Below, piece by piece: positions 2,414-40,547 of a stretch of DNA of 40,547 nucleotides. The position numbers were made by a program, and so were the translations under genes. Under the pieces are notes generated by a model. That model saw only the letters and a list, made by a program, of their open reading frames with translations. It was not told where the DNA came from and did no database searches. The DNA is from Escherichia phage MirsaeidiM_Esher2. The DNA lies in the sequence record PQ464628.1; one strand, written 5' to 3'. Each line of letters starts with the position of its first letter. The stretch's first letter is position 1.

Positions 2414-2592
2414 ACCCCCGGTTACTTATAGTATTACTGTAGTGAATATACATATGCAGACTTTATGCAAGACCTTAGGAGGCAGACTCCGAGTTCTTAC
2501 CTAAGGCTTGCACCGATGGAAGGAGGGCGATATTAATCATAATCCCTCCAATACAGATAGTAAAGACCATAGATACAGGAGGTATGTAGCAT

Positions 2593-2751
2593 ATGGCAAA
2601 GACCAAAGCTGTACTTAAAGCTCTGGCGACCAATCGAGCTACATACAGGTTTCTTGCTGCTGTTCTACTTACTGCTGGCGTTACTACTGGAAGTCAGTGG
2701 GTCGGGTGGGTCGAGACTCTCGTATGTTCTCTGGTGTCTGAGTGTCATTAA
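2593..2751 (+). CDS. 19.5: small protein, T7 gp19.5-like (52 aa)
   Basis: ATG with SD AGGAGG 10 nt upstream; hydrophobic 52-aa product with RxTYRFL motif resembling recalled T7 gp19.5; below the 60-aa cutoff of the ORF track. Confidence 0.5.
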   Translation: MAKTKAVLKALATNRATYRFLAAVLLTAGVTTGSQWVGWVETLVCSLVSECH

Positions 2752-2860
2752 CGCCGTAATGGTAACAATCAACGAAAGGAGGTAGGGATGGACGAGGAGT
2801 CTTATGGGTCGTTCTCTGACGAAGATTATCAGACGGAGTGGGAATACTCGCATTGAAGAC

Positions 2861-2901
2861 CTAAGGTCAGTTCATAGCTGACGCTACTCTACTGACCTTA
2901 G
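2861..2901. repeat. perfect 10-bp inverted repeat (CTAAGGTCAG / CTGACCTTAG) with 21-nt loop
   Basis: Arms at 2861..2870 and 2892..2901 are exact reverse complements; located in the right-end non-coding region. Confidence 0.6.
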
Positions 2902-2988
2902 CTACTGTAGTCAAGGACTTTAGGTAACACCTTAAGAGAAGCTCACTTAGGGTCATCCTACTTATTGGTCCATCCTAGTGTCGCCTGA

Positions 2989-3025
2989 CCTACGGTCCTT
3001 GACCTACAGTGGCTGTGGCCTACAG
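2989..3025. repeat. short repeats CCTAC(A/G)G x3, right-end side
   Basis: CCTACGG at 2989, CCTACAG at 3003 and 3019; same motif as the array at 3266..3367; analogous to the CCTAAAG-type repeats near T7 ends. Confidence 0.5.
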
Positions 3026-3064
3026 TAGTGACGATGAGTTTTGGACCAAAAGTTTGAGACCACA

Positions 3065-3265
3065 TCTCACAGTTCAAGAACCTCAAGTCTCCCCATAGGC
3101 CCTCTTTCAGTCCAGACCAAAGGCCCTACCCAAGTCTATCATAAGGTTAGACCGATGGTCAAGACTTCAGGTCAACGATAGGTCTAGGCTATGGCTTAGG
3201 GAAGGACGATAGGTGGTGACTATTGGTCTGTCTTTGAGTCTCTATCTGTATCAGACCTTGAGTCA
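3065..3265. repeat. candidate terminal-repeat region (collapsed single copy) with genome end near 3065
   Basis: Starts TCTCACAGT, as the T7 left end does (TCTCACAGTGTACGG, recalled); flanked on both sides by CCTACAGT repeat arrays; boundaries approximate. Confidence 0.3.
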
Positions 3266-3322
3266 CTACCTACAGTCTAACTACCTACAGTCTAACTACC
3301 TACAGTCTAACTACCTACAGTC
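3266..3322. repeat. tandem 15-bp repeat CTACCTACAGTCTAA (3 full copies + 12-nt partial)
   Basis: Read directly; two further CCTACAGT copies at 3344..3367; produces the artefactual SNYLQ-repeat ORF 3213..3410. Confidence 0.9.
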
Positions 3323-3478
3323 ATCGACCATCGGTAATGCTGCTACCTACAGTCTAAACCTACAGTTAATAGACACAATGGCTATAGACTTAAGGTCTAA
3401 GACATGTTAGTCAAAGACTATATCCTCTTACACCATGGGGCCGACGATAGCTTAATCAATATTATTTCAAATTACCTA

Positions 3479-3507
3479 TTGACTATAGGTCCAGACTATG
3501 GCCTAAT
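3479..3507 (+). promoter_or_regulatory. candidate sigma70 early promoter (A1-like)
   Basis: TTGACT at 3479..3484, 17-nt spacer, weak -10 CCTAAT at 3502..3507; resembles T7 A1 context (TTGACT...CCTATAGG) as recalled. Confidence 0.35.
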
Positions 3508-3789
3508 AGCTTCCGTCAACACGACACGGCAACAACCGGATAGTGAAGACGCCGGTGTCATCCCGGTTAAGTAGACAGCCTGATAAGTCATACGAACAAC
3601 AGGCAGATGACAATAAGGTAGTAAGGTCGCTGAGGGCTTCCACTTCAGCAGGTCGGAAAGGTCCTAAAACCTAACGAGAGTCTGACCAGCTCGCCAAGTC
3701 TGCCACTGAGGTGGATAACCAGAGGAGGCAACGTGTCGCCCACTGAGGGGCTACAGCTCACAGTTTAGGTTAACAGGCTAAACAAATGC

Positions 3790-3819
3790 TTGACAAGATG
3801 TAACGATAAGATGTAATAT
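3790..3819 (+). promoter_or_regulatory. sigma70 early promoter (A3-like): TTGACA-18-TAATAT
   Basis: -35 TTGACA 3790..3795, -10 TAATAT 3814..3819 preceded by TG; surrounding sequence resembles T7 A3 (TTGACAACATGAAGTAA...TACCACATG). Confidence 0.6.
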
Positions 3820-3942
3820 TTACCACATCGAAACAACGGTGATGACCAACACTGAAATGGTCTACCTGAAGTCCTCTGACTGAAGGGAATGCTCTTTAAC
3901 AATCTGGATAAACTCTTAATGTGCGCCGATAGCGACTAACTA

Positions 3943-3990
3943 CAGGGCCTTTGAGTCTACATCTGAAGGCCCTGACTGATAGCCACTAAC
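3943..3990 (+). promoter_or_regulatory. 9-bp-stem hairpin plus conserved box CCTGACTGATAGCCACTAAC (RNase III R0.3-like site candidate)
   Basis: Stem 3943..3951 / 3966..3974 is perfectly complementary; no T-tract follows; immediately upstream of the first early ORF. Confidence 0.5.
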
Positions 3991-3997
3991 TTAAAGG

Positions 3998-4252
3998 ATG
4001 GACACTATGAAACACTTAAGCACAATCACTAATCGCAATGAAGTATTCGTGAACACTAAAGGTTATGCGTGGATTCAGCTTAAAGAGATGAGAGGAGCGC
4101 GTCACCGTGTGGTAGTGCGCAAGGTATCAAGCAAGCAGTTCAGCAACTACAGCGTCGATACTGTGCGTATAGACAACGAGACATACCTGATAGACGCGCA
4201 GATAACCGTGAGTCCTACAGTGGGCGTCTCAGCTCCTTATTTCGCTAACTGA
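3998..4252 (+). CDS. hypothetical early protein (84 aa; basic)
   Basis: First ORF downstream of the sigma70 promoters; SD AAGGA favours the second ATG at 4007; no similarity to T7 proteins I can recall. Confidence 0.55.
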   Translation: MDTMKHLSTITNRNEVFVNTKGYAWIQLKEMRGARHRVVVRKVSSKQFSNYSVDTVRIDNETYLIDAQITVSPTVGVSAPYFAN

Positions 4253-4265
4253 GAGTGATTAACTA

Positions 4266-4307
4266 CAGGTCGTTAGAATCATAGCGGCCTGACTGATAGT
4301 CACTAAC
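4266..4307 (+). promoter_or_regulatory. hairpin plus second copy of box CCTGACTGATAGTCACTAAC
   Basis: 7-bp stem 4266..4272 / 4285..4291 (one G-U); box 4288..4307 is 19/20 identical to 3971..3990; directly upstream of the ocr-like gene. Confidence 0.45.
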
Positions 4308-4335
4308 ACATAATTAACTTTGAGAGGATATAACT

Positions 4336-4839
4336 ATGGAACGTAATGCTAACGCATACTATGAGCTGCTGGCTGCAACCGTTGAGGCATTTATCGAGCG
4401 TATTCAGTACGACCATCTGACTCAAGATGATGACTACAGCGATGCGCTGCATGAGGTCGTAGACGGTCAGGTTCCACACTATTACCACGAGATTTTTACG
4501 GTGATGGCTGCTGATGGTATAGACCACGAGTTCGAAGACTCTGGGCTGATGCCTGAAACCAAGGACGTAACGCGTATACTACAAGCTCGCATCTATGAGG
4601 CGCTTTATAACGATGTGTCTAATAGCTTGGATGTAGTCTGGTTTGAGGCTGAAGAGGCAGACGAAGAGGATGAATATTGGGTAGTTGACGCTAAAACAGG
4701 CGCAATAATTGTGCAAGCTGTAGCTCTTGAGGTCGCTACTGCATGTGCCAAGGTCAACTATGCAATAGGTCGCCACCTGAAGGTGGAAGACATCAATGAT
4801 AACGTAGTGTTCGACCCTGCGGCTGAGGACTGCGAGTGA
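4336..4839 (+). CDS. 0.3: Ocr-like DNA-mimic anti-restriction protein with C-terminal extension
   Basis: 167 aa; residues ~40-95 ([43 protein letters not shown]) match recalled T7 Ocr; acidic; about 50 aa longer than the 117-aa T7 Ocr. Confidence 0.8.
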
Positions 4840-4988
4840 TGGTAACTTATGGTCTCTGCCAGCACCACGTCGCCAACGCCCGGCTTATGGTCAAGACCGG
4901 GCGGTTAACCCATGATGAGACTATGCGTCTCCTGAAGGTGGTCTACAAGCGCCGCAAGCGTATTCACGACAGTTTGCACGCTGAGTGA
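4839..4988 (+). CDS. hypothetical small basic protein (49 aa)
   Basis: ATG overlaps the ocr stop (TGATGG); open 49 codons; below ORF-track cutoff; Cys/His-containing, basic C-terminus. Confidence 0.35.
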   Translation: MVTYGLCQHHVANARLMVKTGRLTHDETMRLLKVVYKRRKRIHDSLHAE

Positions 4989-4995
4989 TAAACGA

Positions 4996-5021
4996 GAGGT
5001 CATCGACTGATAGGTGGCCTC
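4996..5021 (+). promoter_or_regulatory. hairpin GAGGTCA / TGGCCTC with GACTGATAG in the loop
   Basis: 7-bp stem incl. one G-U pair; shares the AGGTCA/TGGCCT core with hairpins at 8711, 16060 and 40490. Confidence 0.4.
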
Positions 5022-5054
5022 AAAGATTACCACTTACATTAATAGGGGTTAACT

Positions 5055-5144
5055 ATGAGTGTGGGATATTGGGTATGCCTAGCGCCAGTTATCTGGATGA
5101 TAGGCTATGGGTTATACGACTGTATTAAACGGAAATCACTATGA
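5055..5144 (+). CDS. hypothetical 29-aa hydrophobic peptide
   Basis: ATG with SD AGGGG upstream; stop overlaps next ATG (ATGA); very short, so weak. Confidence 0.25.
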   Translation: MSVGYWVCLAPVIWMIGYGLYDCIKRKSL

Positions 5145-5338
5145 GTCTTGCACTATTGATAGCCATAGGCTATGGACTTATCGCCTACGTGCTGGTGAGA
5201 GACATCAACAAAGCGCGTAAAGTCTACAAATTCAACTATGTACGTCTGGGCCGCTGGACTGTACGTCAACCTAACGGACGATTCATGCGCAACTTAGCGA
5301 ACGTCTGGGATATAGCAACTATTGGGAGCAAACTGTAA
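5141..5338 (+). CDS. hypothetical small membrane protein (65 aa)
   Basis: N-terminal hydrophobic segment LALLIAIGYGLIAYVLV; start overlaps preceding stop, stop overlaps next start (TAATG). Confidence 0.45.
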   Translation: MSLALLIAIGYGLIAYVLVRDINKARKVYKFNYVRLGRWTVRQPNGRFMRNLANVWDIATIGSKL

Positions 5339-5598
5339 TGAAAACCGTATACATTAACAAACCATCTAGCCATAGCCGTGTAGAGCAAATAGAGCGTGAC
5401 ATGTTCTTACATCGCCGCATGAGGGCTGAGGGCCATAAGTACGAACTGATGAGTCTGGCGTTTGGTGGACGACCGATCACTGACGATGGTAAACTTTTAG
5501 TCTCAGGCTGGAAGGCGATAGACCAACGGTCAACCATCAAGCACACGACTCACGGTGACTTCAGCCATCTCCACGCTAACCAACTGATATGCAAGTGA
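5338..5598 (+). CDS. hypothetical early protein (86 aa)
   Basis: Translationally coupled to the upstream ORF; occupies the position where T7 has gene 0.7 but is far too short for a kinase. Confidence 0.5.
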   Translation: MKTVYINKPSSHSRVEQIERDMFLHRRMRAEGHKYELMSLAFGGRPITDDGKLLVSGWKAIDQRSTIKHTTHGDFSHLHANQLICK

Positions 5599-5603
5599 TT
5601 ATG

Positions 5604-5626
5604 ACTTAACTATCACTATAGGACTC
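5604..5626 (+). promoter_or_regulatory. phage-RNAP promoter-like sequence directly upstream of the RNAP gene
   Basis: ACTTAACTATCACTATAGGACTC; identical to the phiOR-like site over 20 nt (5603..5622 = 2390..2409). Confidence 0.55.
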
Positions 5627-5695
5627 AAGGTCTAAGACTCCAAGTGAAAGACCAAAGAGACTTTAAGTGAAAGACTAATAACAAGGACTTTAAGT

Positions 5696-8377
5696 ATGAG
5701 CATCATCTCTATTGATAAACACGACTTCTCTGATGTGTCTAACACCATTGAGCCGTTTAACCTGCTGGCTGACCACTACGGGCAAGACCTTGCAGTCAAG
5801 CAGCTTCAGCTTGAGCATGAGGCATACACTGAAGGCGAGCGACGTTTCATCAAGAACCTTGAGCGACAGACTGAGCGCGGGGAACTGGCAGACAATCAGG
5901 TCGCCAAGCCTTTGATGCAGACTCTTGTACCTAAGATTGCGCAAGCAGTCAAGGAGTGGCACGAAGGCCAAGACGGGAAGCTGTCAACCTCTCGTCCTAG
6001 CGTAGCGTTCACCATGTTGAGCACTGAAGAGAAGGCCGTCAAGGACCGCTCTATGCGCATCTCCTGTGAGTCCGCTGCGGTTATCATACTGAAGGTCATA
6101 CTCTCCAAGCTGGTCAAGCCCGAAGGGATACCGATTACACCTATGGCCTCCGCGATAGGTCGCACACTTGAGGACGAAATCCGCTTCGGTCGCATCCGTG
6201 ACAAAGAGAAAGAGCACTTCAAGAAGGCGATAGCTGATAACCTGAATAAGCGGGCCGGGGCGTCCTACAAGAAAGCCTACATGCAAGCGGTCGAGGCGTC
6301 CATGCTGGAGCAAGGCCAACTGGAAGATGCGTGGGGGACTTGGAGTCCTACAGAGGCTGTCCACGTTGGCATCAAGATGCTTGAGATTGTCATCCAGTCA
6401 ACACAACTGGTCGAGCTTAAGCGTTACGGTGCTGGCAATGCAGCGGCTGATGTCGAGATGGTCCACCTGTCAGACTTCTGGGTCAAGAAGATGGCACAAC
6501 GTGGATTCAGCCTTGCGGGTATCGCACCAGTCTATCAGCCTTGCGTCGTTCCACCTAAGCCGTGGACGGGTGTCGTAGGCGGTGGTTACTGGGCCAAAGG
6601 TCGCAGACCATTACCGCTGATTCGCTTAGGCTCTAAGTCTGCGGTAGCACGTTACGAAGACGTGTACATGCCTGAAGTCTATGAAGCTGTGAACATCATT
6701 CAGAATACACCTTGGAAAGTGAACAAGAAGGTTCTGGACGTGGTGAACATGGTCGAGAAGCTGAACAACACGCCTATTGATGACATCCCTCAGATGGAAC
6801 CGCTGAAGCCTGAGGACTATGCGGGTGAGACTGAGGAGGAACTCAAGGCATGGAAGAAAGCTGCTGCTGGTATCTATCGCCGCGAGAAGGCCAGACAGTC
6901 ACGCAGGTTGTCACTGAGCTTTATCGTTAACCAAGCGAACAAGTTCTCTCAGTTCAAGGCTATATGGTTCCCGTACAACATGGACTGGCGCGGTCGCGTC
7001 TACGCTGTGCCGATGTTCAACCCTCAGGGTAACGACATGCAGAAGGGTCTCCTGACTCTGGCAGTTGGCAAGCCTATTGGTGCTGACGGTTTCAAATGGC
7101 TAAAGGTACACGGTGCAAACTGCGCGGGTGTCGATAAAGTCACCTTCGAGGAGCGCATCAAGTGGGTGGAAGACAACCACGACAACATCATGGCTGCTGC
7201 TAAAGCACCTATGGACAGCATTGAGTGGTGGGGAAAGTTAGACTCTCCGTTCTGTTTCCTCGCGTTCTGCTTCGAGTATGCTGGCGTAATGCGCCATGGC
7301 CTGTCTTACTCCTGCTCGCTGCCGATAGCGTTCGATGGGTCCTGCTCTGGGATTCAGCACTTCAGCGCGATGCTTCGTGACCACATCGGTGGACATGCGG
7401 TAAACCTGACGCCTTCCGGTAAAGTCCAAGACATCTACCGCATCGTGTCCGACCGCATTGAGGAGGAGCTTAAAGTCCTGCTGGTTAACGGCACGGACAA
7501 CGAGATGGTAACTCACGAGGACAAGAAAACTGGTGAGATTACCGAGCGTCTCAAGCTGGGGACACGAGAGCTGGCCCGTCAGTGGCTGACCTACGGTATG
7601 TCACGCAAGGTTACTAAGCGCTCAGTCATGACTCTGGTCTACGGGTCGAAAGAGTACGGCTTCGCAGACCAAGTTTACGAGGACATCGTGATGCCCGCGA
7701 TTGACTCAGGGTCTGGCGCTATGTTCACCGAACCAAGCCAAGCGTCCCGCTTCATGGCTAAGATGATTTGGGAAGCTGTGAGCGTGACCGTAGTTGCTGC
7801 GGTAGACGCTATGAAGTGGCTTCAAGGTGCTGCCAAGCTGCTGGCTGCTGAAGTGAAAGACAAGAAGACTGGAGAAATCCTGAAGCCTTGCCTTCCGGTA
7901 CACTGGGTCACGCCTGATGGGTTCCCGGTCTGGCAGGAATACCGCAAGAAGGATACCACGCGTCTGAACCTGATGTTCTTAGGGTCATTCAACCTTCAGC
8001 CTACCGTCAACAAAGGCACGAAGAAAGAGCTGGATAAGCACAAGCAGGAGTCAGGCATTAGCCCGAACTTCGTCCACTCACAAGATGGTAGCCACCTCCG
8101 CAAGACTGTAGTCCATACTCACCGCAAGTATGGCGTGATGTCGTTCGCAGTGATTCACGATAGCTTCGGGACCATCCCGGCTGACGCTGAGTATCTGTTC
8201 CGTGGGGTCCGTGAGACTATGGTAGAGACCTACCGCGACAACGATGTGCTGCTTGACTTCTACGAGCAGTTTGAATACCAGCTTCACGAGAGCCAGCGCG
8301 ATAAGTTGCCAGAGCTTCCGAAGAAAGGTAAACTGAATATCGAAGACATCTTGTCTTCAGACTTTGCATTCGCCTAA
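5696..8377 (+). CDS. 1: single-subunit DNA-directed RNA polymerase (T7 gp1 homolog)
   Basis: 893 aa; colinear with recalled T7 RNAP (PFNLLADHYG, GRIRD, QPCVVPPKPWTG, DGSCSGIQHFSAM, HDSFGTIPADA, ending SDFAFA). Confidence 0.97.
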   Translation: MSIISIDKHDFSDVSNTIEPFNLLADHYGQDLAVKQLQLEHEAYTEGERRFIKNLERQTERGELADNQVAKPLMQTLVPKIAQAVKEWHEGQDGKLSTSRPSVAFTMLSTEEKAVKDRSMRISCESAAVIILKVILSKLVKPEGIPITPMASAIGRTLEDEIRFGRIRDKEKEHFKKAIADNLNKRAGASYKKAYMQAVEASMLEQGQLEDAWGTWSPTEAVHVGIKMLEIVIQSTQLVELKRYGAGNAAADVEMVHLSDFWVKKMAQRGFSLAGIAPVYQPCVVPPKPWTGVVGGGYWAKGRRPLPLIRLGSKSAVARYEDVYMPEVYEAVNIIQNTPWKVNKKVLDVVNMVEKLNNTPIDDIPQMEPLKPEDYAGETEEELKAWKKAAAGIYRREKARQSRRLSLSFIVNQANKFSQFKAIWFPYNMDWRGRVYAVPMFNPQGNDMQKGLLTLAVGKPIGADGFKWLKVHGANCAGVDKVTFEERIKWVEDNHDNIMAAAKAPMDSIEWWGKLDSPFCFLAFCFEYAGVMRHGLSYSCSLPIAFDGSCSGIQHFSAMLRDHIGGHAVNLTPSGKVQDIYRIVSDRIEEELKVLLVNGTDNEMVTHEDKKTGEITERLKLGTRELARQWLTYGMSRKVTKRSVMTLVYGSKEYGFADQVYEDIVMPAIDSGSGAMFTEPSQASRFMAKMIWEAVSVTVVAAVDAMKWLQGAAKLLAAEVKDKKTGEILKPCLPVHWVTPDGFPVWQEYRKKDTTRLNLMFLGSFNLQPTVNKGTKKELDKHKQESGISPNFVHSQDGSHLRKTVVHTHRKYGVMSFAVIHDSFGTIPADAEYLFRGVRETMVETYRDNDVLLDFYEQFEYQLHESQRDKLPELPKKGKLNIEDILSSDFAFA

Positions 8378-8391
8378 CAGGAGAGAGAGCT

Positions 8392-8607
8392 ATGAAATTT
8401 GCACACAAGCATACTGGCGTTAATGGTGGGACTCAAATCGTGACCGTAACAGAACACAACGGCAAGGGTCTGGTGAAGACCACGGTCATCCCTACCGAGA
8501 TGTCCAAGCAGCTTAACATCCCGTTCAAGACTCTTGTAGATCTGGTCGAGTCCAGCCATGAGAAGTACCTGAAGGACGCAGTGTCCAAGCTGGAGCAGGC
8601 CAAATGA
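8392..8607 (+). CDS. hypothetical protein (71 aa) between RNAP and promoter phi1.1
   Basis: Strong SD AGGAGA 8 nt upstream of ATG; no T7 counterpart recalled. Confidence 0.55.
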   Translation: MKFAHKHTGVNGGTQIVTVTEHNGKGLVKTTVIPTEMSKQLNIPFKTLVDLVESSHEKYLKDAVSKLEQAK

Positions 8608-8681
8608 CAGACCTACAGTTACTGGCCTTGTGGCTAGGAGCACTCGCAGTATTCACTTTAATCCAACGCAGAAGAGGTTAA

Positions 8682-8704
8682 CCTAAACTATCACTATAGG
8701 ATTA
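8682..8704 (+). promoter_or_regulatory. phage-RNAP promoter (CCTAAACTATCACTATAGGATTA)
   Basis: Consensus 23-mer; upstream of the gene 1.1-like ORF. Confidence 0.8.
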
Positions 8705-8747
8705 GACTCAAGGTCATGACTCAAAGTCGTGGCCTTCATGATTAACC
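8705..8747 (+). promoter_or_regulatory. RNase III-type hairpin candidate (R1.1-like)
   Basis: Upper stem AGGTCA 8711..8716 / TGGCCT 8730..8735 with 13-nt loop; motif TAGACTCAAGGTCAT...GTGGCCTTYATGRTTA shared with 16049.. and 40481.. Confidence 0.45.
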
Positions 8748-8777
8748 CTAAATAAACACTACTGGAGATTTAACCTT

Positions 8778-8957
8778 ATGTATCAGAATACTATCAACTT
8801 CGAGCGCATCCGTGAACGTCAGCAGACTGAAGGTTACATTCCGAAGGGTCGCAAGCTGAACAAGACTAAACGTGGTGGTGGCGTGAAGGGTGCTTTCCGT
8901 AATGCTGAAGGTAAAGACTCTCTGGTCAACCAAGAGAAATACTTCGTAGGAGCATAA
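8778..8957 (+). CDS. 1.1: small basic protein, T7 gp1.1-like (59 aa)
   Basis: ATG with GGAG upstream; contains KGRKLNKTKR as recalled for T7 gp1.1; below ORF-track cutoff. Confidence 0.6.
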   Translation: MYQNTINFERIRERQQTEGYIPKGRKLNKTKRGGGVKGAFRNAEGKDSLVNQEKYFVGA

Positions 8958-8961
8958 CCAA

Positions 8962-9225
8962 ATGGGCCGACTTTATAGTGGCAACCTCAACGCTTTCAAA
9001 GCGGCGTGTAACAGGCTCTATCAGTTAGACTTCGCTGTCATATCTCAAGAGTTTCAAGACTATACGTCACGCCAAGAGTGCATGAAACTCAGGGTGGAGG
9101 ACCGAGCTGGTAACATCTTCGCGCTTGAGACCTTCGCACACTACGATGAAGACGTGCTGTATAATACTGCAACAGACTACCTCAACGGTCTCGCTGACCA
9201 TCTCGACACATGGAGCAAAGCATAA
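8962..9225 (+). CDS. 1.2: gp1.2-like protein (dGTP triphosphohydrolase inhibitor in T7)
   Basis: 87 aa; MGRLYSGNL..AFKAA..YDEDVL matches recalled T7 gp1.2; SD AGGAG. Confidence 0.85.
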   Translation: MGRLYSGNLNAFKAACNRLYQLDFAVISQEFQDYTSRQECMKLRVEDRAGNIFALETFAHYDEDVLYNTATDYLNGLADHLDTWSKA

Positions 9226-10256
9226 TGACAACTATTAAAACCAACCCGCACCGCGCTGTAGATTACTCTGAGTATGGCATTAAGAAGGCACTGGAAGCAG
9301 CCGGGTCTCTGGAAGCTGAAGTGAAGTACGATGGTGTGCGGTTGAACCTTCCAGTCTTCCCATCAGGCGAGACCCAATGGTTGAGCCGTGAGTCTAAACC
9401 ACTTCCTTCCCTTAGCTGGATGAACACATCCGGTGAGGACATTGGGGCGACCAAGGCAAGCGACTGGCGGTGGTTCCTGAAGCAAGCTGGATATGAGGGG
9501 ACTGGCCTGATGATTGATGGTGAGGTCATGGTAAAGGGTGTAGACTTCAACACGTCTTCTGGCCTCATTCGCACGAAGTATGTCAAGTCTAAAAACTGCG
9601 CCCTCCACGATGGTGATTGGGACCTCAAGTCCAAGACTACTCAGTTCCGGCTGGACCGAGACCGTATCAAGGTGGTCGTCTATGGTATCGTGGACCTTAA
9701 CGTCATCCTCGACCCGAAAGCCGAAGGTCCTATCCATAGCGTCACCCGCCTGAAGGCCGAAGCTATCGTCCCTCTCCTTCAGAAATACTTCCCGGAAATC
9801 GACTGGGTTCTGTCTGAGAGTCATACAGTGTTCAACCTTGAGTATCTTCGTGATTTGTACGAGGAGAAGCGAGCAGATGGACATGAAGGTCTGGTAGTCA
9901 AGGACCCACTGGGCAAATACAAGCGTGGTAAGAAGTCTGGTATGTGGAAGATGAAGCCAAGTGAAGAGGCGGATGGTCACGTTGTTCGCCCGGTGTGGGG
10001 AACAGAAGGTCTAGCCAACGAAGGTACGGTCATCGGCTTCGACGTTATGCTCGAGAACGGGATGGAGGTCTCCGCAACTAACATTAGTCGCGCCCTTATG
10101 ACCGAGTTCACGGAGAACGTTAAGTCAGACCCTGACTACTACAAGGGGTGGGCTTGCCAGATTACCTACATGGAGGAGACACCAGATGGCTCATTGCGAC
10201 ACCCCTCGTTTGACCAGTGGCGCGGGACGGAAGATAACCCTACCATTAAGAGCTAA
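9225..10256 (+). CDS. 1.3: ATP-dependent DNA ligase (T7 gp1.3 homolog)
   Basis: KYDGVR adenylation motif, MVKGVDFNT, EGHEGLVVKDP, KSGMWKMKP, DGSLRHPSF; start set at the ATG overlapping the gp1.2 stop (GGAG 9 nt upstream); ORF track starts at 9210. Confidence 0.93.
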   Translation: MTTIKTNPHRAVDYSEYGIKKALEAAGSLEAEVKYDGVRLNLPVFPSGETQWLSRESKPLPSLSWMNTSGEDIGATKASDWRWFLKQAGYEGTGLMIDGEVMVKGVDFNTSSGLIRTKYVKSKNCALHDGDWDLKSKTTQFRLDRDRIKVVVYGIVDLNVILDPKAEGPIHSVTRLKAEAIVPLLQKYFPEIDWVLSESHTVFNLEYLRDLYEEKRADGHEGLVVKDPLGKYKRGKKSGMWKMKPSEEADGHVVRPVWGTEGLANEGTVIGFDVMLENGMEVSATNISRALMTEFTENVKSDPDYYKGWACQITYMEETPDGSLRHPSFDQWRGTEDNPTIKS

Positions 10257-10265
10257 CTAAATGTC

Positions 10266-10300
10266 AACCCAGTGGTCTTATGACTGCTGGGTTTCTTTGC
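10266..10300 (+). terminator. candidate intrinsic terminator after ligase (TE-like)
   Basis: Stem AACCCAG 10266..10272 / CTGGGTT 10287..10293 followed by TTCTTTG; same position as T7 early terminator TE. Confidence 0.45.
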
Positions 10301-10319
10301 GTCTAGGCCACAGATAGAC

Positions 10320-10342
10320 CCTAAGCTATCACTATAGGACAA
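10320..10342 (+). promoter_or_regulatory. phage-RNAP promoter (CCTAAGCTATCACTATAGGACAA)
   Basis: One mismatch from the window consensus. Confidence 0.7.
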
Positions 10343-10366
10343 CCAACAACAACCTAAGGAGACTCT

Positions 10367-10627
10367 ATGTCTAAGAACTTAATGTTCAACCGTTATTCCA
10401 ATACCTTCCACCTGTCTCACAACCCGTTCGCTTGCATTAAGCGCAACGAGAAGCTGGGATACTTCGGGAAGGCTGTTAAGTTATCACCTACAGTCTACGC
10501 TCTGATTACTCCGGGCAGAGCTGAAGAGGCGCGCCAGAAGCGTGAGACCAACGTACCTGTGGTCTACACTAAGTGGCCTCGCGTTCGTCTGTTCGTTGAG
10601 TTCGTGAAGGAGGTGATCAATGCTTAA
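10367..10627 (+). CDS. hypothetical class II small protein (T7 gp1.5/1.6 position)
   Basis: 86 aa; SD AAGGAG upstream; assigned by position only. Confidence 0.6.
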   Translation: MSKNLMFNRYSNTFHLSHNPFACIKRNEKLGYFGKAVKLSPTVYALITPGRAEEARQKRETNVPVVYTKWPRVRLFVEFVKEVINA

Positions 10628-11054
10628 GGTCGGGGATGTGGTGTGCTACGCTGGGACGCATAGTCAATTTATTGGCCGCTATGATGGTAAGGTTCTTAGC
10701 GTATGTAAATCAGGGGACTCAGTAGAGGTGAAATGGCCGGGGATTATTGAGCCAGTTAAACACGGTAAAGCCGCACTAATTATCACCAATAATGTTCGGG
10801 ACAAACCAGAAGTCAGTGACGACGGTGTACGCAAGCCGTCTCACTATAAGGTCTTTGATGGCGTGGAATCCATTGAGATTATCGCACGGTCAATGACTGT
10901 GAGTGAGTTCCGTGGGTTCTGCATGGGTAACGTCCTGAAGTATCGACTCCGGGCTGGTAAGAAGTCCGAGCTGGCTACTATGGAGAAGGACTTGAACAAG
11001 GCAGCCTTCTATCAGGAGCTATTCGACTTGCATAAAGGTAAGTGCTATGCTTAA
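10620..11054 (+). CDS. 1.7: gp1.7-like protein (nucleotide kinase C-terminal region)
   Basis: 144 aa; C-terminal half (KPSHYKVFDGVESIEIIARSMT...GNVLKYRLRAGKKSELA...KCYA) matches recalled T7 gp1.7; shorter N-terminus than T7; SD AAGGAGG. Confidence 0.8.
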   Translation: MLKVGDVVCYAGTHSQFIGRYDGKVLSVCKSGDSVEVKWPGIIEPVKHGKAALIITNNVRDKPEVSDDGVRKPSHYKVFDGVESIEIIARSMTVSEFRGFCMGNVLKYRLRAGKKSELATMEKDLNKAAFYQELFDLHKGKCYA

Positions 11055-13683: not shown

Positions 13684-13891
13684 ACTTATCGAATTTCTTG
13701 GTCGTCTGGCGGTGCGTGGTTATCGTCGTGCTGCGGTACTGGAACGAAAGGTAGAAAAGAAGACTGCGGACGGTGCGGCTGATGCTGCTGCTCTGGCTGA
13801 CAAGCTGACCATCGCGTCACTGGAAGCTGGCATGAAGGCTCGTCAGGCTGATACCAAAGCTGACCAGTTGGCTCAGTTCTTCAAAGCCTAA
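13676..13891 (+). CDS. hypothetical Ala-rich helical protein (71 aa)
   Basis: ATG overlaps HNH stop; stop TAA lies inside the next promoter-like sequence. Confidence 0.5.
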   Translation: MIKLIEFLGRLAVRGYRRAAVLERKVEKKTADGAADAAALADKLTIASLEAGMKARQADTKADQLAQFFKA

Positions 13892-13909
13892 ACTATCACC
13901 TTAGGGATT
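13887..13909 (+). promoter_or_regulatory. divergent phage-RNAP promoter-like sequence (CCTAAACTATCACCTTAGGGATT)
   Basis: Matches consensus upstream half but has CTTA in place of TATA at -4..-1; activity uncertain. Confidence 0.4.
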
Positions 13910-15865: not shown

Positions 15866-16048
15866 ATGGAGGGTTACATTCTAATGTTACGAAAACTTAA
15901 AGCTCGCTACCATCGGTTCATGTACAAATGGTGGAGTGACGAAGCAACCTGCCTGTCCAACATTCTGGGAGACCAAAGGTTCGACTCCGAGGCGTGGAAG
16001 AGAGCTAACCGGAAGTTTATGTATCACTTCTTGCGTACAGACTTCTAG
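15866..16048 (+). CDS. hypothetical protein (60 aa; may start at 15884)
   Basis: Second ATG at 15884 has GGAGGG 9 nt upstream; position corresponds to T7 genes 4.3/4.5. Confidence 0.45.
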
Positions 16049-16096
16049 GTCTAGACTCAAGGTCATTCATAGCGAGTGGCCTTTATGATTAGACTA
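16049..16096 (+). promoter_or_regulatory. RNase III-type hairpin candidate upstream of DNA polymerase gene
   Basis: Upper stem AGGTCA 16060..16065 / TGGCCT 16077..16082, 11-nt loop; shares the motif seen at 8705.. and 40481.. Confidence 0.45.
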
Positions 16097-16112
16097 AAGC
16101 GGAGGATTAACC

Positions 16113-18284
16113 ATGTTTGACATTAAGAGTATCTGGGGTTCTGACATCGAGACCAACGGTCTCCTTGATACAGTCTCCCAGTTTCACTGTGGGGTCCTGA
16201 TTAACGCCGAGTCGAATGAGACCCTTAAGTACGGGGTAGCTCCGATGGTCGGTATCGTCGGTGGCTTCAAAGAGTATGTTCATAAAGTGGAAGAGATTGC
16301 CGCATCACCTGATGGTATGCTGGTATTCCATAACGGTATCAACTATGACGTCCCGGCTATAGACAAGCTGAAGCGTTTGTACTTTGGGAAACGCTTTAAC
16401 TTCCCGAAACATAAGATGATTGATACCTTGGTGCTGGGACGCTTGATGTATCCAAACATTAAGTTCTCAGACATGGGCGCAGTGAAAGCTGGTCGTCTTC
16501 CACCTAAGATGATGGGACGCCAGTCTCTTGAGGCTTGGGGCTATCGTCTCGGTGAGATGAAAGGTGAGTACAAACACGATTACGTTGCCAAGTGCAAGGC
16601 TGAAGGCATCGAATATAAGGCTGGGGACGAATGGTTGTTCCCGTCTCAGGAGATGCTGGACTATAACGTTCAAGACGTTGTGGTCACACTGGCGTTGTTC
16701 AAGAAGTTCCTGACTGACAAGTATTACTTCCAGTCTGAACAGTTCGCTTTCGAACAGATTTATGCGTTGCGTCTGGAACACGATGCTGCGTGGACCTGTG
16801 CGAAGATGGAGCGTAACGGCTATCCGATGAACACCGAGATGGTCGAAGGCTTATATCGTGAACTCACCGTCAAACGTGCGGAGCTGCTGGACAAGCTGCG
16901 TTCGACTTTCGGCAGCTGGTACGCACCAAAGGGAGGAAAGGAGTTCTTCAAGCACCCACGGACAGGCAAGGACCTTCCGAAGTATCCGAGAGTCGTGTAT
17001 CCTAAGGTCGGTGTCATCTTTAAGAAGCCGAAGAACAAAGCTCAACGCTTAGGTCTTGAACCTTGTGAACTCGATACGCGAGACACGATGGAGGGAGCAC
17101 CATTCACGCCAATCACTTACGTTGAGTTTAATCCGGGAAGCGGAGACCACTTAGCGAAAGTATTGATGGAGCGTGGCTGGGAGCCTGTGGACTTCACTGA
17201 CACAGGGAAACCTGTAGTCGATGACGAGACGTTGGAACACGTTAAGTTACCAGACGCAGAGGCTCAGGCTTGCGTAGAGCTGGTCCGTGAGTATCTGGTA
17301 GTCCAGAAGCGAATCGGTCAGGCGGCTGAAGGTAAGAACGCATGGTTGAAACTTGTAGGTCCAGACGGACGTATGCACGGTTCAATCAACCCTTGTGGAG
17401 CAGTAACCGGACGTGCGACCCATAGTTCACCAAACATGGCTCAGGTCCCGGCTAACGGTGCTCCGTATGGTGAGACTTGCCGTGGTGCTTTCGGTGCAGC
17501 GTGGAACAAGAAGGATGGCAAGCCAGACCCTTGGATTCAAGTAGGTGTGGATGCTTCAGGTCTTGAGCTTCGTTGTCTGGGGAACCGAGCGGCTCCGTTT
17601 GATGGTGGCGACTATGCGAAGACTGTGGTCGAAGGTGACATCCACTGGGCCAACGCAGTCAACGCTGGGTTAGCACCTAACGTCCCACGCGACAAGTCCA
17701 GCCACGACCACGATGCTTTCCGTAACAACGCCAAGACGTTCATCTATGCGTTTCTGTATGGTGCAGGTGCCGCTAAGATTGGACTGATTGTAGGCGGTGG
17801 TAAGAAGGAAGGCGCGGCCCTGATGAAGAAATTTATTGAGGGTACACCAGCTATCAAGGACCTGCGAGAGGCTGTCCAGAACACGCTCATCTCCGAGTCC
17901 AAGTGGGTAGATGGTGAGAACATCGTGAAGTGGAAACGCCGCTGGCTTAAAGGTCTGGACGGTCGACGCATTCACATCCGGTCTCCACACTCAGCACTTA
18001 ACGCCTTGCTTCAAGGTGATGGTGCGGTGGTCTGCAAGCACTGGATAGTCGAGACCGAGCGTATGCTCGAAGAGGCCGGGTATGTCCACGGCTGGGAAGG
18101 AGACTTCGCGTACATGGCTTGGGTCCACGATGAGCTACAGATTGCGTGTCGCACTCAGGAGATTGCCGAAGAAGTCGTCAAGATTGCTCAACTTGCTATG
18201 CGTAAGGTGGGCGAGTTCTATAACTTTAAATGTGTGTTAGACACGGAGGGTAAAATTGGACCAACGTGGAAAGAATGCCATTGA
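16113..18284 (+). CDS. 5: DNA polymerase (T7 gp5 homolog, family A)
   Basis: 723 aa; FHNGINYDVPA, AVTGRATHSSPNMAQ, NAKTFIYAFLYGAG, AYMAWVHDELQ, C-terminal GKIGPTWKECH match recalled T7 gp5. Confidence 0.97.
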   Translation: MFDIKSIWGSDIETNGLLDTVSQFHCGVLINAESNETLKYGVAPMVGIVGGFKEYVHKVEEIAASPDGMLVFHNGINYDVPAIDKLKRLYFGKRFNFPKHKMIDTLVLGRLMYPNIKFSDMGAVKAGRLPPKMMGRQSLEAWGYRLGEMKGEYKHDYVAKCKAEGIEYKAGDEWLFPSQEMLDYNVQDVVVTLALFKKFLTDKYYFQSEQFAFEQIYALRLEHDAAWTCAKMERNGYPMNTEMVEGLYRELTVKRAELLDKLRSTFGSWYAPKGGKEFFKHPRTGKDLPKYPRVVYPKVGVIFKKPKNKAQRLGLEPCELDTRDTMEGAPFTPITYVEFNPGSGDHLAKVLMERGWEPVDFTDTGKPVVDDETLEHVKLPDAEAQACVELVREYLVVQKRIGQAAEGKNAWLKLVGPDGRMHGSINPCGAVTGRATHSSPNMAQVPANGAPYGETCRGAFGAAWNKKDGKPDPWIQVGVDASGLELRCLGNRAAPFDGGDYAKTVVEGDIHWANAVNAGLAPNVPRDKSSHDHDAFRNNAKTFIYAFLYGAGAAKIGLIVGGGKKEGAALMKKFIEGTPAIKDLREAVQNTLISESKWVDGENIVKWKRRWLKGLDGRRIHIRSPHSALNALLQGDGAVVCKHWIVETERMLEEAGYVHGWEGDFAYMAWVHDELQIACRTQEIAEEVVKIAQLAMRKVGEFYNFKCVLDTEGKIGPTWKECH

Positions 18285-18654
18285 CGGAAAGTCCCTGCAT
18301 TTTACAGGCGCTGCGAGCGAGCTGTATGCAAGTTACCGACTGACATCTATTGGACACCAAGTCTTCCTACCAGCGTTCACCCAGTCCAAAGCGGACTTAG
18401 TGGTGGATATTAACGGGACCCTTAAGAGGGTTCAGGTGAAGACTGGGACCAAGCTGAAGAACTGCAATAGCATTCAGGTCCGACTCGGTGGGTGCGGAAA
18501 GCCCACCTACAGCCCGGGAGAGATTGACCTACTGGCTGTGGTCTATCAGGATAACTTCTGGCTGATTCCGTTCGTGGAAGAAGTGAGGCTTAAAACCTCC
18601 ATGTGTATAAACCTAACGTCCGACAAGAAGTACGGACACTTTAAACAGGAGTAA
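18256..18654 (+). CDS. hypothetical protein (132 aa), possible PD-(D/E)xK-like nuclease fold
   Basis: TTG start with GGAGGG 5 nt upstream, overlapping the end of gene 5; contains D-x(n)-QVK arrangement (ADLVVDINGTLKRVQVK); function is inference only. Confidence 0.5.
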   Translation: MDQRGKNAIDGKSLHFTGAASELYASYRLTSIGHQVFLPAFTQSKADLVVDINGTLKRVQVKTGTKLKNCNSIQVRLGGCGKPTYSPGEIDLLAVVYQDNFWLIPFVEEVRLKTSMCINLTSDKKYGHFKQE

Positions 18655-20671: not shown

Positions 20672-20944
20672 ATGGCTATTAATGCTATTGAAAACGTTGT
20701 TAAGCAGTTACAGGAAGAAAGACTTGATGTCCCGAACATCTCCCAGTCTGCCATCCAGTTCCTGCACGTACTGTTCAACGCAAGCTACGCTGAGAAGATG
20801 GGAGCTATCAGTCTCCTCAAGCAGCAGGGCTACAGCGATGCGTTCATTGCTGGGTTCATCAAGGGTCTCCAGTATTGTTCTGACACTCTCGACTCTGCGA
20901 TTGCTATGCGTCGTGAGCTGAAAGATACCGTTCAGTTCGATTAA
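20672..20944 (+). CDS. hypothetical protein (gp6.5 position)
   Basis: 90 aa; SD GAGGAG; assigned by position after the promoter. Confidence 0.6.
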   Translation: MAINAIENVVKQLQEERLDVPNISQSAIQFLHVLFNASYAEKMGAISLLKQQGYSDAFIAGFIKGLQYCSDTLDSAIAMRRELKDTVQFD

Positions 20945-40022: not shown

Positions 40023-40217
40023 ATGATTGAGTTAGACTTCAAGAATGAGGTCCTTAAAGCCTCTCCTATCGTCGGGACCGCTGCGGCTGATGGTGCCAGT
40101 CGGTTCTTCTTCGGACTTACACTGAACGAATGGTTCTACGTTGCAGCTATAGCGTACACCGTTGTCCAGATTGGTGTGCTAGTCTACAAAACGATTAAAG
40201 GAGGTGGTAAAACATGA
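40023..40217 (+). CDS. 17.5: class II holin (T7 gp17.5 homolog)
   Basis: 64 aa; APIVGTAAADGASRFFFGLTLNEWFYVAAIAYTVVQIG matches recalled T7 holin; SD GGAGG. Confidence 0.85.
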   Translation: MIELDFKNEVLKASPIVGTAAADGASRFFFGLTLNEWFYVAAIAYTVVQIGVLVYKTIKGGGKT

Positions 40218-40477
40218 CGCAGATGGACTTAGAGAAGTTCCTCTTAATTCTGGATACTGAACGTGCTCGACTCATGCTGCAAGACCTGCGGGATGACACT
40301 AAGCGTTCACCTCAGCTTTACAACGCCATCGAGAAGCTACTGGCTCGTCACAACTTTGTGCTAAGCAAGGTGTCAGTTGACGAGAAGACGCTCGCTGATA
40401 TGGAGGCCCTGAACGCAGAGTATGATAAGGTGCTTTCAGCGACTGAGGATAATGACACAGGGTATGGTGTTCAATAA
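40214..40477 (+). CDS. 18: terminase small subunit / DNA maturation protein (T7 gp18 homolog)
   Basis: 87 aa; RSPQLYNAIEKLLARH matches recalled T7 gp18; ATG overlaps holin stop; SD AGGAGG. Confidence 0.85.
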   Translation: MTQMDLEKFLLILDTERARLMLQDLRDDTKRSPQLYNAIEKLLARHNFVLSKVSVDEKTLADMEALNAEYDKVLSATEDNDTGYGVQ

Positions 40478-40528
40478 GTGTTAGACTCAAGGTCATTACT
40501 ATATGTAGTGGCCTTTATGGTTAACACT
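40477..40528 (+). promoter_or_regulatory. RNase III-type hairpin candidate upstream of Rz (R18.5-like)
   Basis: Lower stem AGTGTTA 40477..40483 / TAACACT 40522..40528; upper stem AGGTCA 40490..40495 / TGGCCT 40509..40514; 13-nt loop. Confidence 0.5.
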
Positions 40529-40547
40529 AACTAGTGGAGGAGACTCT
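40493..40547. repeat. 55-nt duplicate of window positions 1..55 (circular assembly overlap)
   Basis: Exact identity read directly. Confidence 0.95.

Follow-up and report, generated by a model that had tools for sequence, protein, structure and literature searches.

Probable RNase III processing signals of the T7 type in the early region of Escherichia phage MirsaeidiM_Esher2

Introduction

The genome of Escherichia phage MirsaeidiM_Esher2 (sequence record PQ464628.1; 40,547 nucleotides, in the following called the window) contains three hairpins in its early region, and the question raised by this locus is whether they end the early transcript or mark the places at which it is cut by ribonuclease III (RNase III) of the host. 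A preliminary description, made from the letters of the window, had favoured the second possibility and regarded the hairpins as analogues of the T7 sites R0.3 and R0.5. The answer has practical consequences. K1F-like phages have uses in phage therapy and in engineering, and correct labels change the predicted early transcript map from attenuated transcription to three processed mRNAs with defined 5' ends. Among the public records inspected, an RNase III label for the hairpins is missing throughout, and in at least one they are given as terminators.

The analysis reported here indicates that the three hairpins are very probably the upper stems of T7-type RNase III processing signals in the polycistronic early transcript of the host polymerase. 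Sequence and structural homology, covariation and conserved recognition positions carry this reading. The finding holds but is an ordinary one, the elements being homologues of the textbook T7 system with a variant internal loop.

Results

Hairpins, 9-mer and 20-bp box

All three hairpins fold as predicted. Their stem arms are CAGGGCCTTT/GAAGGCCCTG at 3943..3974, CAGGTCGTTA/TAGCGGCCTG with G.U pairs at 4266..4291, and GAGGTCATC/GGTGGCCTC at 4996..5021, and the folding z-scores of the surrounding segments (86, 86 and 71 nucleotides) are -1.8, -3.5 and -3.8, respectively. The reported absence of a T-tract was borne out, since only two to three U residues occur in the ten nucleotides after each stem, and a terminator scan of 3000..10800 reported none of the three hairpins.

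The 20-bp box that had been described next to the first two hairpins is likewise present. Its copies, 19/20 identical, share the 20-mer CCTGACTGATAGYCACTAAC, for which shuffled sequences give 0.00 occurrences; a third copy is absent from the window even at three mismatches.

3971..3990, plus strand: box copy 1, CCTGACTGATAGCCACTAAC, the C variant
4288..4307, plus strand: box copy 2, CCTGACTGATAGTCACTAAC

Each hairpin had also been associated with the 9-mer GACTGATAG. It occurs exactly four times in the window, on the plus strand at 3974, 4291 and 5005 and on the minus strand at 20805, so that three of the four copies lie on the plus strand within 1.04 kb (mean in shuffles 0.39; 1 of 100 shuffles reaches four). 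The association therefore holds for the three plus-strand copies, but the third differs from the others in position: it makes up the apical loop (5005..5013) of its hairpin, and the real counterpart of the box at this place is CCTCAAAGATTACCACTTAC (5018..5037). As a stand-alone motif the 9-mer was rejected; at one mismatch it is scattered over both strands without pattern, and neither of the covariance models described below reports a site at the minus-strand copy.

Alignment with the early sites of T7

The three elements, numbered sites 1 to 3, align column for column with R0.3, R0.5, R1, R1.1 and R1.3 of T7, as two pairs may illustrate:

T7 R0.5: GAGTGATAGACTCAAGGTCGCTC-CTAGC-GAGTGGCCTTTATGATTATCACTTTAC
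Window site 2: GAGTGATTAACTACAGGTCGTTA-GAATCA-TAGCGGCCTGACTGATAGTCACTAAC
T7 R1: TTACAGGTCATC-TGC-GGGTGGCCTGAATAGG
Window site 3: GAGTGATAAACGAGAGGTCATCG-ACTGAT-AGGTGGCCTCAAAGATTACCACTTAC

Because the alignment extends through a lower stem, the hairpins are only the upper stems of two-helix elements of about 60 nucleotides, which corrects the earlier description. The 5' flanks that form the lower stems of sites 1 to 3 are AGTGATTA, AGCGACTA and AGTGATAA, and their 3' partners, which make up the distal part of the box, are TAGTCACT, TAGCCACT and TTACCACT. In site 2 both helices are present in the minimum-free-energy fold, and its lower stem AGUGAUUA/UAGUCACU most closely resembles that of T7 R0.5. 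The elements are as follows, with the scores of two covariance models, R1 and R2, in brackets.

3928..3994, plus strand: site 1, RNase III-type signal in the leader that precedes the first early gene (model R1 56.8 bits; model R2 33.7 bits, E 1.2e-5); lower stem 3931-3938 / 3980-3987 with mismatches C.A and A.C; internal loop 3939-3942 / 3975-3979; upper stem 3943-3952 / 3965-3974; apical loop 3953-3964; predicted cut U3977/G3978
4251..4311, plus strand: site 2, RNase III-type signal between the gp0.2-like gene and ocr (model R1 66.6 bits; model R2 46.2 bits, E 9e-9); lower stem 4254-4261 / 4297-4304; internal loop 4262-4265 / 4292-4296; upper stem 4266-4275 / 4282-4291; apical loop 4276-4281; predicted cut U4294/G4295
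4981..5041, plus strand: site 3, RNase III-type signal after a 50-amino-acid open reading frame (ORF) (model R1 60.8 bits; model R2 35.4 bits, E 4.5e-6); lower stem 4984-4991 / 5027-5034 with one A.C mismatch; internal loop 4992-4995 / 5022-5026; upper stem 4996-5004 / 5013-5021; apical loop 5005-5012, which together with G5013 is GACTGATAG; predicted cut A5024/G5025

Seen in this frame, the box is not a separate motif: in sites 1 and 2 it constitutes the 3' half, and the predicted cut falls inside it. Box copy 1 opens with the last four upper-stem nucleotides and runs through the 3' side of the internal loop, where the predicted scissile bond lies, and the 3' strand of the lower stem to three nucleotides beyond. 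The 9-mer can be read in the same way: its first G belongs to the closing pair of the upper stem, ACU makes up the internal loop on the 3' side, the second G has a conserved C as its partner, the following A takes part in an A.A mismatch and UAG is the top of the lower stem. The loop core can be written 5' A-C-N-N / 3' N-N-N-G-A-U, with AC and GAU in all three sites and the scissile position assigned by alignment only. As a separate observation, the box stretch CTGACTGATAGYCACTAAC (3973-3989, 4290-4306) places stop codons in all three frames (TGA, TGA/TAG, TAA) shortly upstream of the ribosome-binding site that follows; only one stop codon is present in the canonical T7 wording, and the pattern in the box may be incidental.

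Covariance models

Model R1 was trained on the five early sites of T7 and the three sites of the window, with no T3 sequence. In T7 it recovers the held-out elements 13852-13909, 18500-18580 (with the phi6.5 promoter inside the loop) and 36815-36873, which we take to be R4.7, R6.5 and R18.5. It misses R3.8 and R13 of T7, and analogues of these in the window could therefore be missed as well. The T7 records NC_001604 and V01146 as served contain no RNase III features, and the T3 record AJ318471 served as the annotated control: within the first 7.5 kb of T3 the model gives five hits and no extra ones, one for each of the five features that carry the label 'RNase III recognition site'.

Model R2 was trained on T7 and T3 sites only, with the window candidates excluded. 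It reports six plus-strand sites in the window, scoring from 60.4 to 33.7 bits, and the next hit has 19.8 bits; beyond the six, nothing is found at E < 0.01, where E-values are rough owing to a shortened calibration. The three additional sites are

8695..8756, plus strand: site 4, canonical T7-type ACTCAAGGTC...GGCCTTCATGAT (model R2 51.3 bits; predicted cut 8739/8740)
16044..16103, plus strand: site 5, canonical T7-type, upstream of the DNA polymerase gene (model R2 46.3 bits; predicted cut 16086/16087)
40474..40535, plus strand: site 6, canonical T7-type, after the small terminase gene (model R2 60.4 bits; predicted cut 40518/40519)

Sites 4 to 6 carry the canonical T7 wording ACTCAAGGTC...GGCCTTTATGAT. 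Site 4 lies directly after a phage promoter (8687-8700) and is the counterpart of T7 phi1.1A/R1.1, site 5 takes the place of a T7 site upstream of the DNA polymerase region, and site 6 is by position the counterpart of T7 R18.5. All six sites are situated on the plus strand, between ORFs and downstream of sigma-70-like or phage promoters. A scan of 2500..9500 against Rfam 15 (E up to 1) yielded no model that matches the sites; the sole hit, located elsewhere and below threshold, was RAGATH-32 with 18.7 bits against a gathering score of 41.8 bits.

Covariation and recognition positions

For an analysis of covariation, 68 model hits, 67 of them distinct, were collected from the window, T7 and the early regions of 43 relatives. 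Standard pairs occupy 95.3% of the cells, compared with 28-52% when the 3' partners are slid by one to three columns, and among the 67 distinct sequences 91.9% of the lower-stem and 98.1% of the upper-stem cells are paired. Double changes are found in 14 of the 18 pairs, and none of 500 shuffles reaches the observed values. Since this alignment had been fitted to the model, it was repeated with MAFFT and RNAalifold on 30 sequences, which returned the same two helices together with a pair inside the loop that is C-G in 28 of 30 sequences and U-A in 2; changes were compensatory in 11/18 pairs. Moreover, two positions of the upper stem are U.G in 46/67 and 33/67 sequences, so that the fold fits the plus-strand RNA only.

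The positions by which E. coli RNase III recognizes its substrates were defined by Pertzev and Nicholson (PMC1540722). In the proximal box of four base pairs, position 1 is G-C, position 2 is A-U or U-A, where G-C or C-G strongly inhibits binding, position 3 is A-U, and position 4 is A-U or U-A, where G-C or C-G suppresses catalysis; the distal box of two base pairs reads U-A, U.G (PMC1540722). These rules were mapped to the alignment through the numbering of the minimal R1.1 substrate (PMC1540722). Position 1 is G-C in 66 of the 67 sequences and position 2 is A-U in 60, U-A in 7 and G-C in none; position 3 varies freely (C-G 27, A-U 20, G-C 17). Sites 1 to 3 all have G-C at position 1, A-U at position 2 and an A.A mismatch at position 4. 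Site 2 has the canonical distal box; that of site 1 is U-A/U-A, and site 3 agrees with T7 R1 in having C-G/U.G. As far as sequence comparison goes, conservation of this kind is the pattern expected of real RNase III substrates. Taken together, the alignment, the covariance models, the covariation and the recognition positions support the earlier suggestion of RNase III processing sites analogous to R0.3 and R0.5 rather than terminators.

Genome setting

Over 3400-5700 the window shares 99% identity with Escherichia phage Pipis and about 94% with phage K1F, and 394 phage records match this region, mostly Kayfunavirus and other phages of the T7 subfamily. On these matches the window is a Kayfunavirus genome (K1F-like, T7 family/subfamily). 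The genome of about 40.5 kb is circularly permuted in the record, and the coordinates of the Pipis match place the conventional left end near 3370. The features around the sites are

3790..3819, plus strand: sigma-70-type early promoter candidate (TTGACA, 18-nucleotide spacer, TAATAT)
3998..4252, plus strand: first early gene, 84 amino acids, K1F gp0.2-like (phrog_10124), with boxes on both sides
4336..4839, plus strand: ocr-like anti-restriction gene, 167 amino acids, gene 0.3 analogue (phrog_2568, E 4e-54)
4836..4988, plus strand: ORF of 50 amino acids between the ocr-like gene and site 3
5696-8377: phage RNA polymerase gene
16113..18284: DNA polymerase gene, downstream of site 5
40214..40477: small terminase gene, upstream of site 6

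The promoter candidate, a consensus match only, agrees with the consensus at 10/12 positions and is the best in 3000..10800, where the seven promoter-like sites are no more than shuffles contain (7.4). It takes the place of the A promoters of T7 and T3 upstream of R0.3, and a transcript starting there would carry sites 1 to 3. In the leader 3520-3790, structured RNA is not evident (z -1.2).

Between ocr and the RNA polymerase gene (4836-5598) only small ORFs of 50, about 29, 65 and 86 amino acids are found. The phage promoter core ACTATCACTATAGG has 11 plus-strand matches with at most two mismatches, from 2396 to 36654, against 0.3 expected; a promoter of this type adjoins site 4, as phi1.1A adjoins R1.1 in T7. 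Right after another (5609-5622), the transcript begins with GGACTCAAGGTCT, the 5' half of a canonical site. A degenerate R1-type site before gene 1 (5621-5660) was nevertheless rejected as a candidate: it has no 3' half, its z-score is -0.3 and neither model calls it. The segment 5609-5660 may be a decayed R1-type site. Near the inferred left end of the genome, a perfect 15-bp tandem array (ACTACCTACAGTCTA x 3.9) occupies 3265-3322. It is probably the T7-type short-repeat region beside the terminal repeat, and its unit ACTACCTACAGTCTA resembles the 5' strand of sites 1 and 2 (CTAACTACAGG).

Relatives and cassette borders

A motif search in related genomes located the exact 20-mer box 20 times in 15 IMG/VR contigs of 39-40.5 kb, with one to three copies each. 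Its variable position is T in 21 of the 22 copies in the window and these contigs. Site 1 of the window has the sole C, which adds the second mismatch to its lower stem. Phage K1F holds three sites as well:

706-772, 1029-1089 and 1765-1825 of K1F (AM084414): three sites

Site-3-type elements of relatives keep ACTGAT-type loops. In one site-2-type element of a relative (L010 1204-1264; same contig as L054 1241), which reads GTTAGACTGATAGCGGCCTGACTGATAG, the 9-mer GACTGATAG stands twice, 15 nucleotides apart, once in the apical region and once in the box. The presence of GACTGATAG in apical loops would be explained most simply by common descent of paralogous sites or by exchange between them; if sites do exchange sequence, the repeated appearance of GACUGAUAG in these loops may be a trace of it.

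The two boxes of the window are direct repeats flanking the gp0.2-like gene. In five related IMG/VR contigs that do not contain this gene, exactly the box-to-box interval is absent and one hybrid site is left in each, in which the upper stem of site 1 is joined to the box and the leader of ocr. In another relative, three boxes surround two cassettes, and across relatives the box stands upstream of at least seven different first genes. The loci listed for box-to-box patterns are

L005 859-925
L007 819-908
L016 714-803
L010 849-1581

When 3700-5700 of the window was compared with the 43 relatives, 45 of 146 breakpoint endpoints fell into the three sites, about three times the 16 expected, and 23 of 66 when only distinct endpoints were counted (about 7 expected). 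This enrichment is suggestive only, because the endpoints are phylogenetically non-independent and intergenic DNA is an expected place for breakpoints.

Discussion

Proposed processing of the early transcript

Early RNA of T7 is cleaved at five sites while it is being transcribed, which yields mono- and dicistronic mRNAs; within R1.1 a single phosphodiester is cut (PMC4858673). Internal loops confine cleavage to a single strand, and the 3' hairpin that is retained guards against 3'-5' exonucleases (PMC1540722, PMC3867540). In the window, the signal is an irregular hairpin of about 60 nucleotides on the plus-strand RNA. Above an 8-bp lower stem come the A.A mismatch and the conserved C-G pair, then an asymmetric internal loop with 2 nucleotides in its 5' strand and 3 in its 3' strand, and finally an upper stem of 9-10 bp whose apical loop varies. 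By analogy, RNase III of the host would bind to the upper stem and cleave a single phosphodiester in the 3' strand of the internal loop, with predicted cuts GACU^GAUAG at 3977/3978 and 4294/4295 and CAAA^GAU at 5024/5025. The upstream RNA would thereby be left with a protective 3' hairpin, and the downstream mRNA would start with GAUAG(Y)CACUAAC, about 20-40 nucleotides before the ribosome-binding site. A leader of about 150 nucleotides would be trimmed off and discarded, and three messages are expected, namely message 1 (about 317 nucleotides, gp0.2-like), message 2 (about 730 nucleotides, ocr and the 50-amino-acid ORF) and message 3 (about 3.7 kb, the small ORFs and RNA polymerase). Cleavage as such, its exact position and an influence on mRNA stability or translation are predictions of this scheme.

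The cut positions are predicted by transfer, through the alignment, from T7 coordinates. Dunn and Studier reportedly placed the T7 cuts at 890, 1468, 3138, 5887 and 6448 in 1983; these values are self-consistent, each cut following the fifth nucleotide past the upper-stem GGCC/GCCC (CCUUUAU^GAU).

This indirect derivation of the cuts is one of several points that weigh against the proposed processing. The lower stem of site 1 has two mismatches and is weak in the minimum-free-energy fold, that of site 3 is out-competed in such a fold (101-nucleotide context), and both sites lie in the lower part of the model R2 score range. Instead of the optimal A-U, position 3 of the proximal box holds C-G in the first two sites and G-C in site 3. 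The literature searched holds no experimental or transcript-end data for this phage or for Kayfunavirus. Furthermore, the ORF list contains no frame large enough for a kinase of the T7 gp0.7 type, the protein that boosts RNase III in T7 infection (PMC4858673). The same position-3 C-G is present in R1 of both T7 and T3, and departures in the proximal and distal boxes are tolerated in known sites but may lower reactivity.

Alternative explanations

The hairpins might instead be intrinsic (rho-independent) terminators or attenuators that limit early read-through. Their stems are G+C-rich, and in the GenBank record of the relative vB_EcoA_ASO2B (MZ726794, L003) the homologous hairpins are annotated as rho-independent terminators following a WebGeSTer prediction. 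Yet these features (1060-1095, 1860-1892 and 2298-2333) are without U-tracts, and all of them lie inside hits of the site model (1045-1105, 1845-1902 and 2283-2343). In the window, too, the bases after the stems are ACUGAUAGCC, ACUGAUAGUC and AAAGAUUACC, with no U-tract; moreover, termination here would halt the host polymerase before the phage RNA polymerase gene at 5696, which is needed. The conserved lower stem and internal loop would have no role in a terminator, and the same elements are annotated as RNase III sites in T3. Since a U-tract is missing and the RNA polymerase gene lies downstream, the terminator reading fails and is regarded as extremely improbable. The hairpins could also be bound but not cut, either by RNase III or by another factor that binds double-stranded RNA, or they could act as folded barriers or translational regulators. 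The UA/ACU loop, in place of UC/UAU in T7, and the C-G at position 3 would then uncouple binding from cleavage. Base pairs near the scissile bond can indeed suppress catalysis while binding is unaffected (PMC1540722), and sites 1 to 3 depart from the canonical T7 loop that sites 4 to 6 of the same phage keep. However, the known antideterminant of catalysis, G-C or C-G at proximal position 4, is absent and replaced by the A.A mismatch, and R1 of T7 and T3 has the same CAGG/CCUG base of the upper stem. A regulatory role might be seen in the helix that 4226-4232 forms with the ribosome-binding site of ocr in the minimum-free-energy fold. The idea that this helix occludes the ribosome-binding site until cleavage relieves it was dropped because the helix is not conserved: the complementary segment is missing from relatives whose upstream gene is a different one. 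Binding or folding without cleavage appears unlikely.

In a further alternative, the box is primarily a linker at the level of DNA, used in recombination to swap early-gene cassettes, and the RNA structure is secondary. The enrichment of breakpoints in the sites and the single hybrid site of relatives without the gp0.2-like gene, as if the interval between boxes had been deleted, are in agreement with this. On the other hand, breakpoints are expected in intergenic DNA anyway, the strand-specific G.U pairs and the compensatory changes point to selection on the RNA fold, and sites 4 to 6 as well as the T7 and T3 sites have the same fold without being cassette borders. As an alternative to the RNA element the linker is thus very improbable; it fits best as a by-product of it. 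On the preferred reading, RNase III processing, it is possible, though put forward only tentatively, that the signals serve in addition as recombination joints of the hypervariable early region, and that the boxes are kept alike by box-to-box recombination which inserts, deletes or swaps early anti-host genes. Such a pattern at cassette boundaries, if true, would help to explain the exchange of early anti-defence genes such as ocr in phages of the T7 family. The behaviour as cassette junctions is the only part of the finding that might repay further work.

Comparison with known systems

The sites of the window and those of T7 share the two-helix architecture, the upper-stem core AGG(U/G)C...G(G/C)CCU, the A.A mismatch, the C-G pair, the invariant GAU 3' of the predicted cut and the lower-stem consensus AGUGAUNA/UNAUCACU. 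Both stand between early cistrons on transcripts of the host polymerase, and site 1, in the leader before the first gene, corresponds to T7 R0.3. The internal loop differs. Sites 1 and 2 have UA / ACU with a closing C-G pair (CUACAGG...CCUGACUGAU), whereas most T7 sites have UC / UAU with a closing A-U pair (CUCAAGG...CCUUUAUGAU); site 3, with GA / AAA and a closing G-C pair, is also unlike T7. These variant loops (UA/ACU and GA/AAA versus UC/UAU) offer a natural series for studying single-strand cleavage directed by the loop of an RNase III substrate. R1.1 has reportedly served the Nicholson laboratory as a model substrate. In gene content the phage differs from T7 by the extra gp0.2-like gene, the missing 0.7 kinase and the lack of an R1-type site directly before gene 1. 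The T3 sites used for comparison are the stem_loop features R0.3, R0.5, R1, R1.1 and R1.3 of AJ318471. R1 of T3 and R1 of T7 have in common the CAGG/CCUG base of the upper stem and the stem GGUCAUC/GGUGGCC of site 3, while R0.3, R0.5 and R1.1 of T3 keep a loop of the UUAUGAU type and no T3 site carries GACUGAUAG. The T7 sites are experimentally defined and those of T3 annotated; for those of the window cleavage is predicted, and the literature searched contains no paper that links K1F or Kayfunavirus to RNase III sites.

With intrinsic terminators the sites have in common a G+C-rich intergenic hairpin, but they differ by the absence of a U-tract, by the conserved lower stem and loop and by their location upstream of essential early genes. 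A different kind of likeness exists to the promoter-early stem-loops (PeSLs), elements by which early-gene cassettes are flanked and shuffled in phages of the T4 type (PMC2839356, PMC4122927). In both cases short conserved regulatory repeats between early genes are found at the boundaries of insertions, deletions and replacements among close relatives, and if the sites are indeed recombination joints, which is tentative as said above, they would be the T7-family counterpart of PeSL cassettes. PeSLs, however, combine a promoter with terminator-like stem-loops and belong to myoviruses, whereas the elements of the window are promoterless, of the RNase III type and found in a podovirus. The resemblance is one of evolutionary behaviour only and not of membership.

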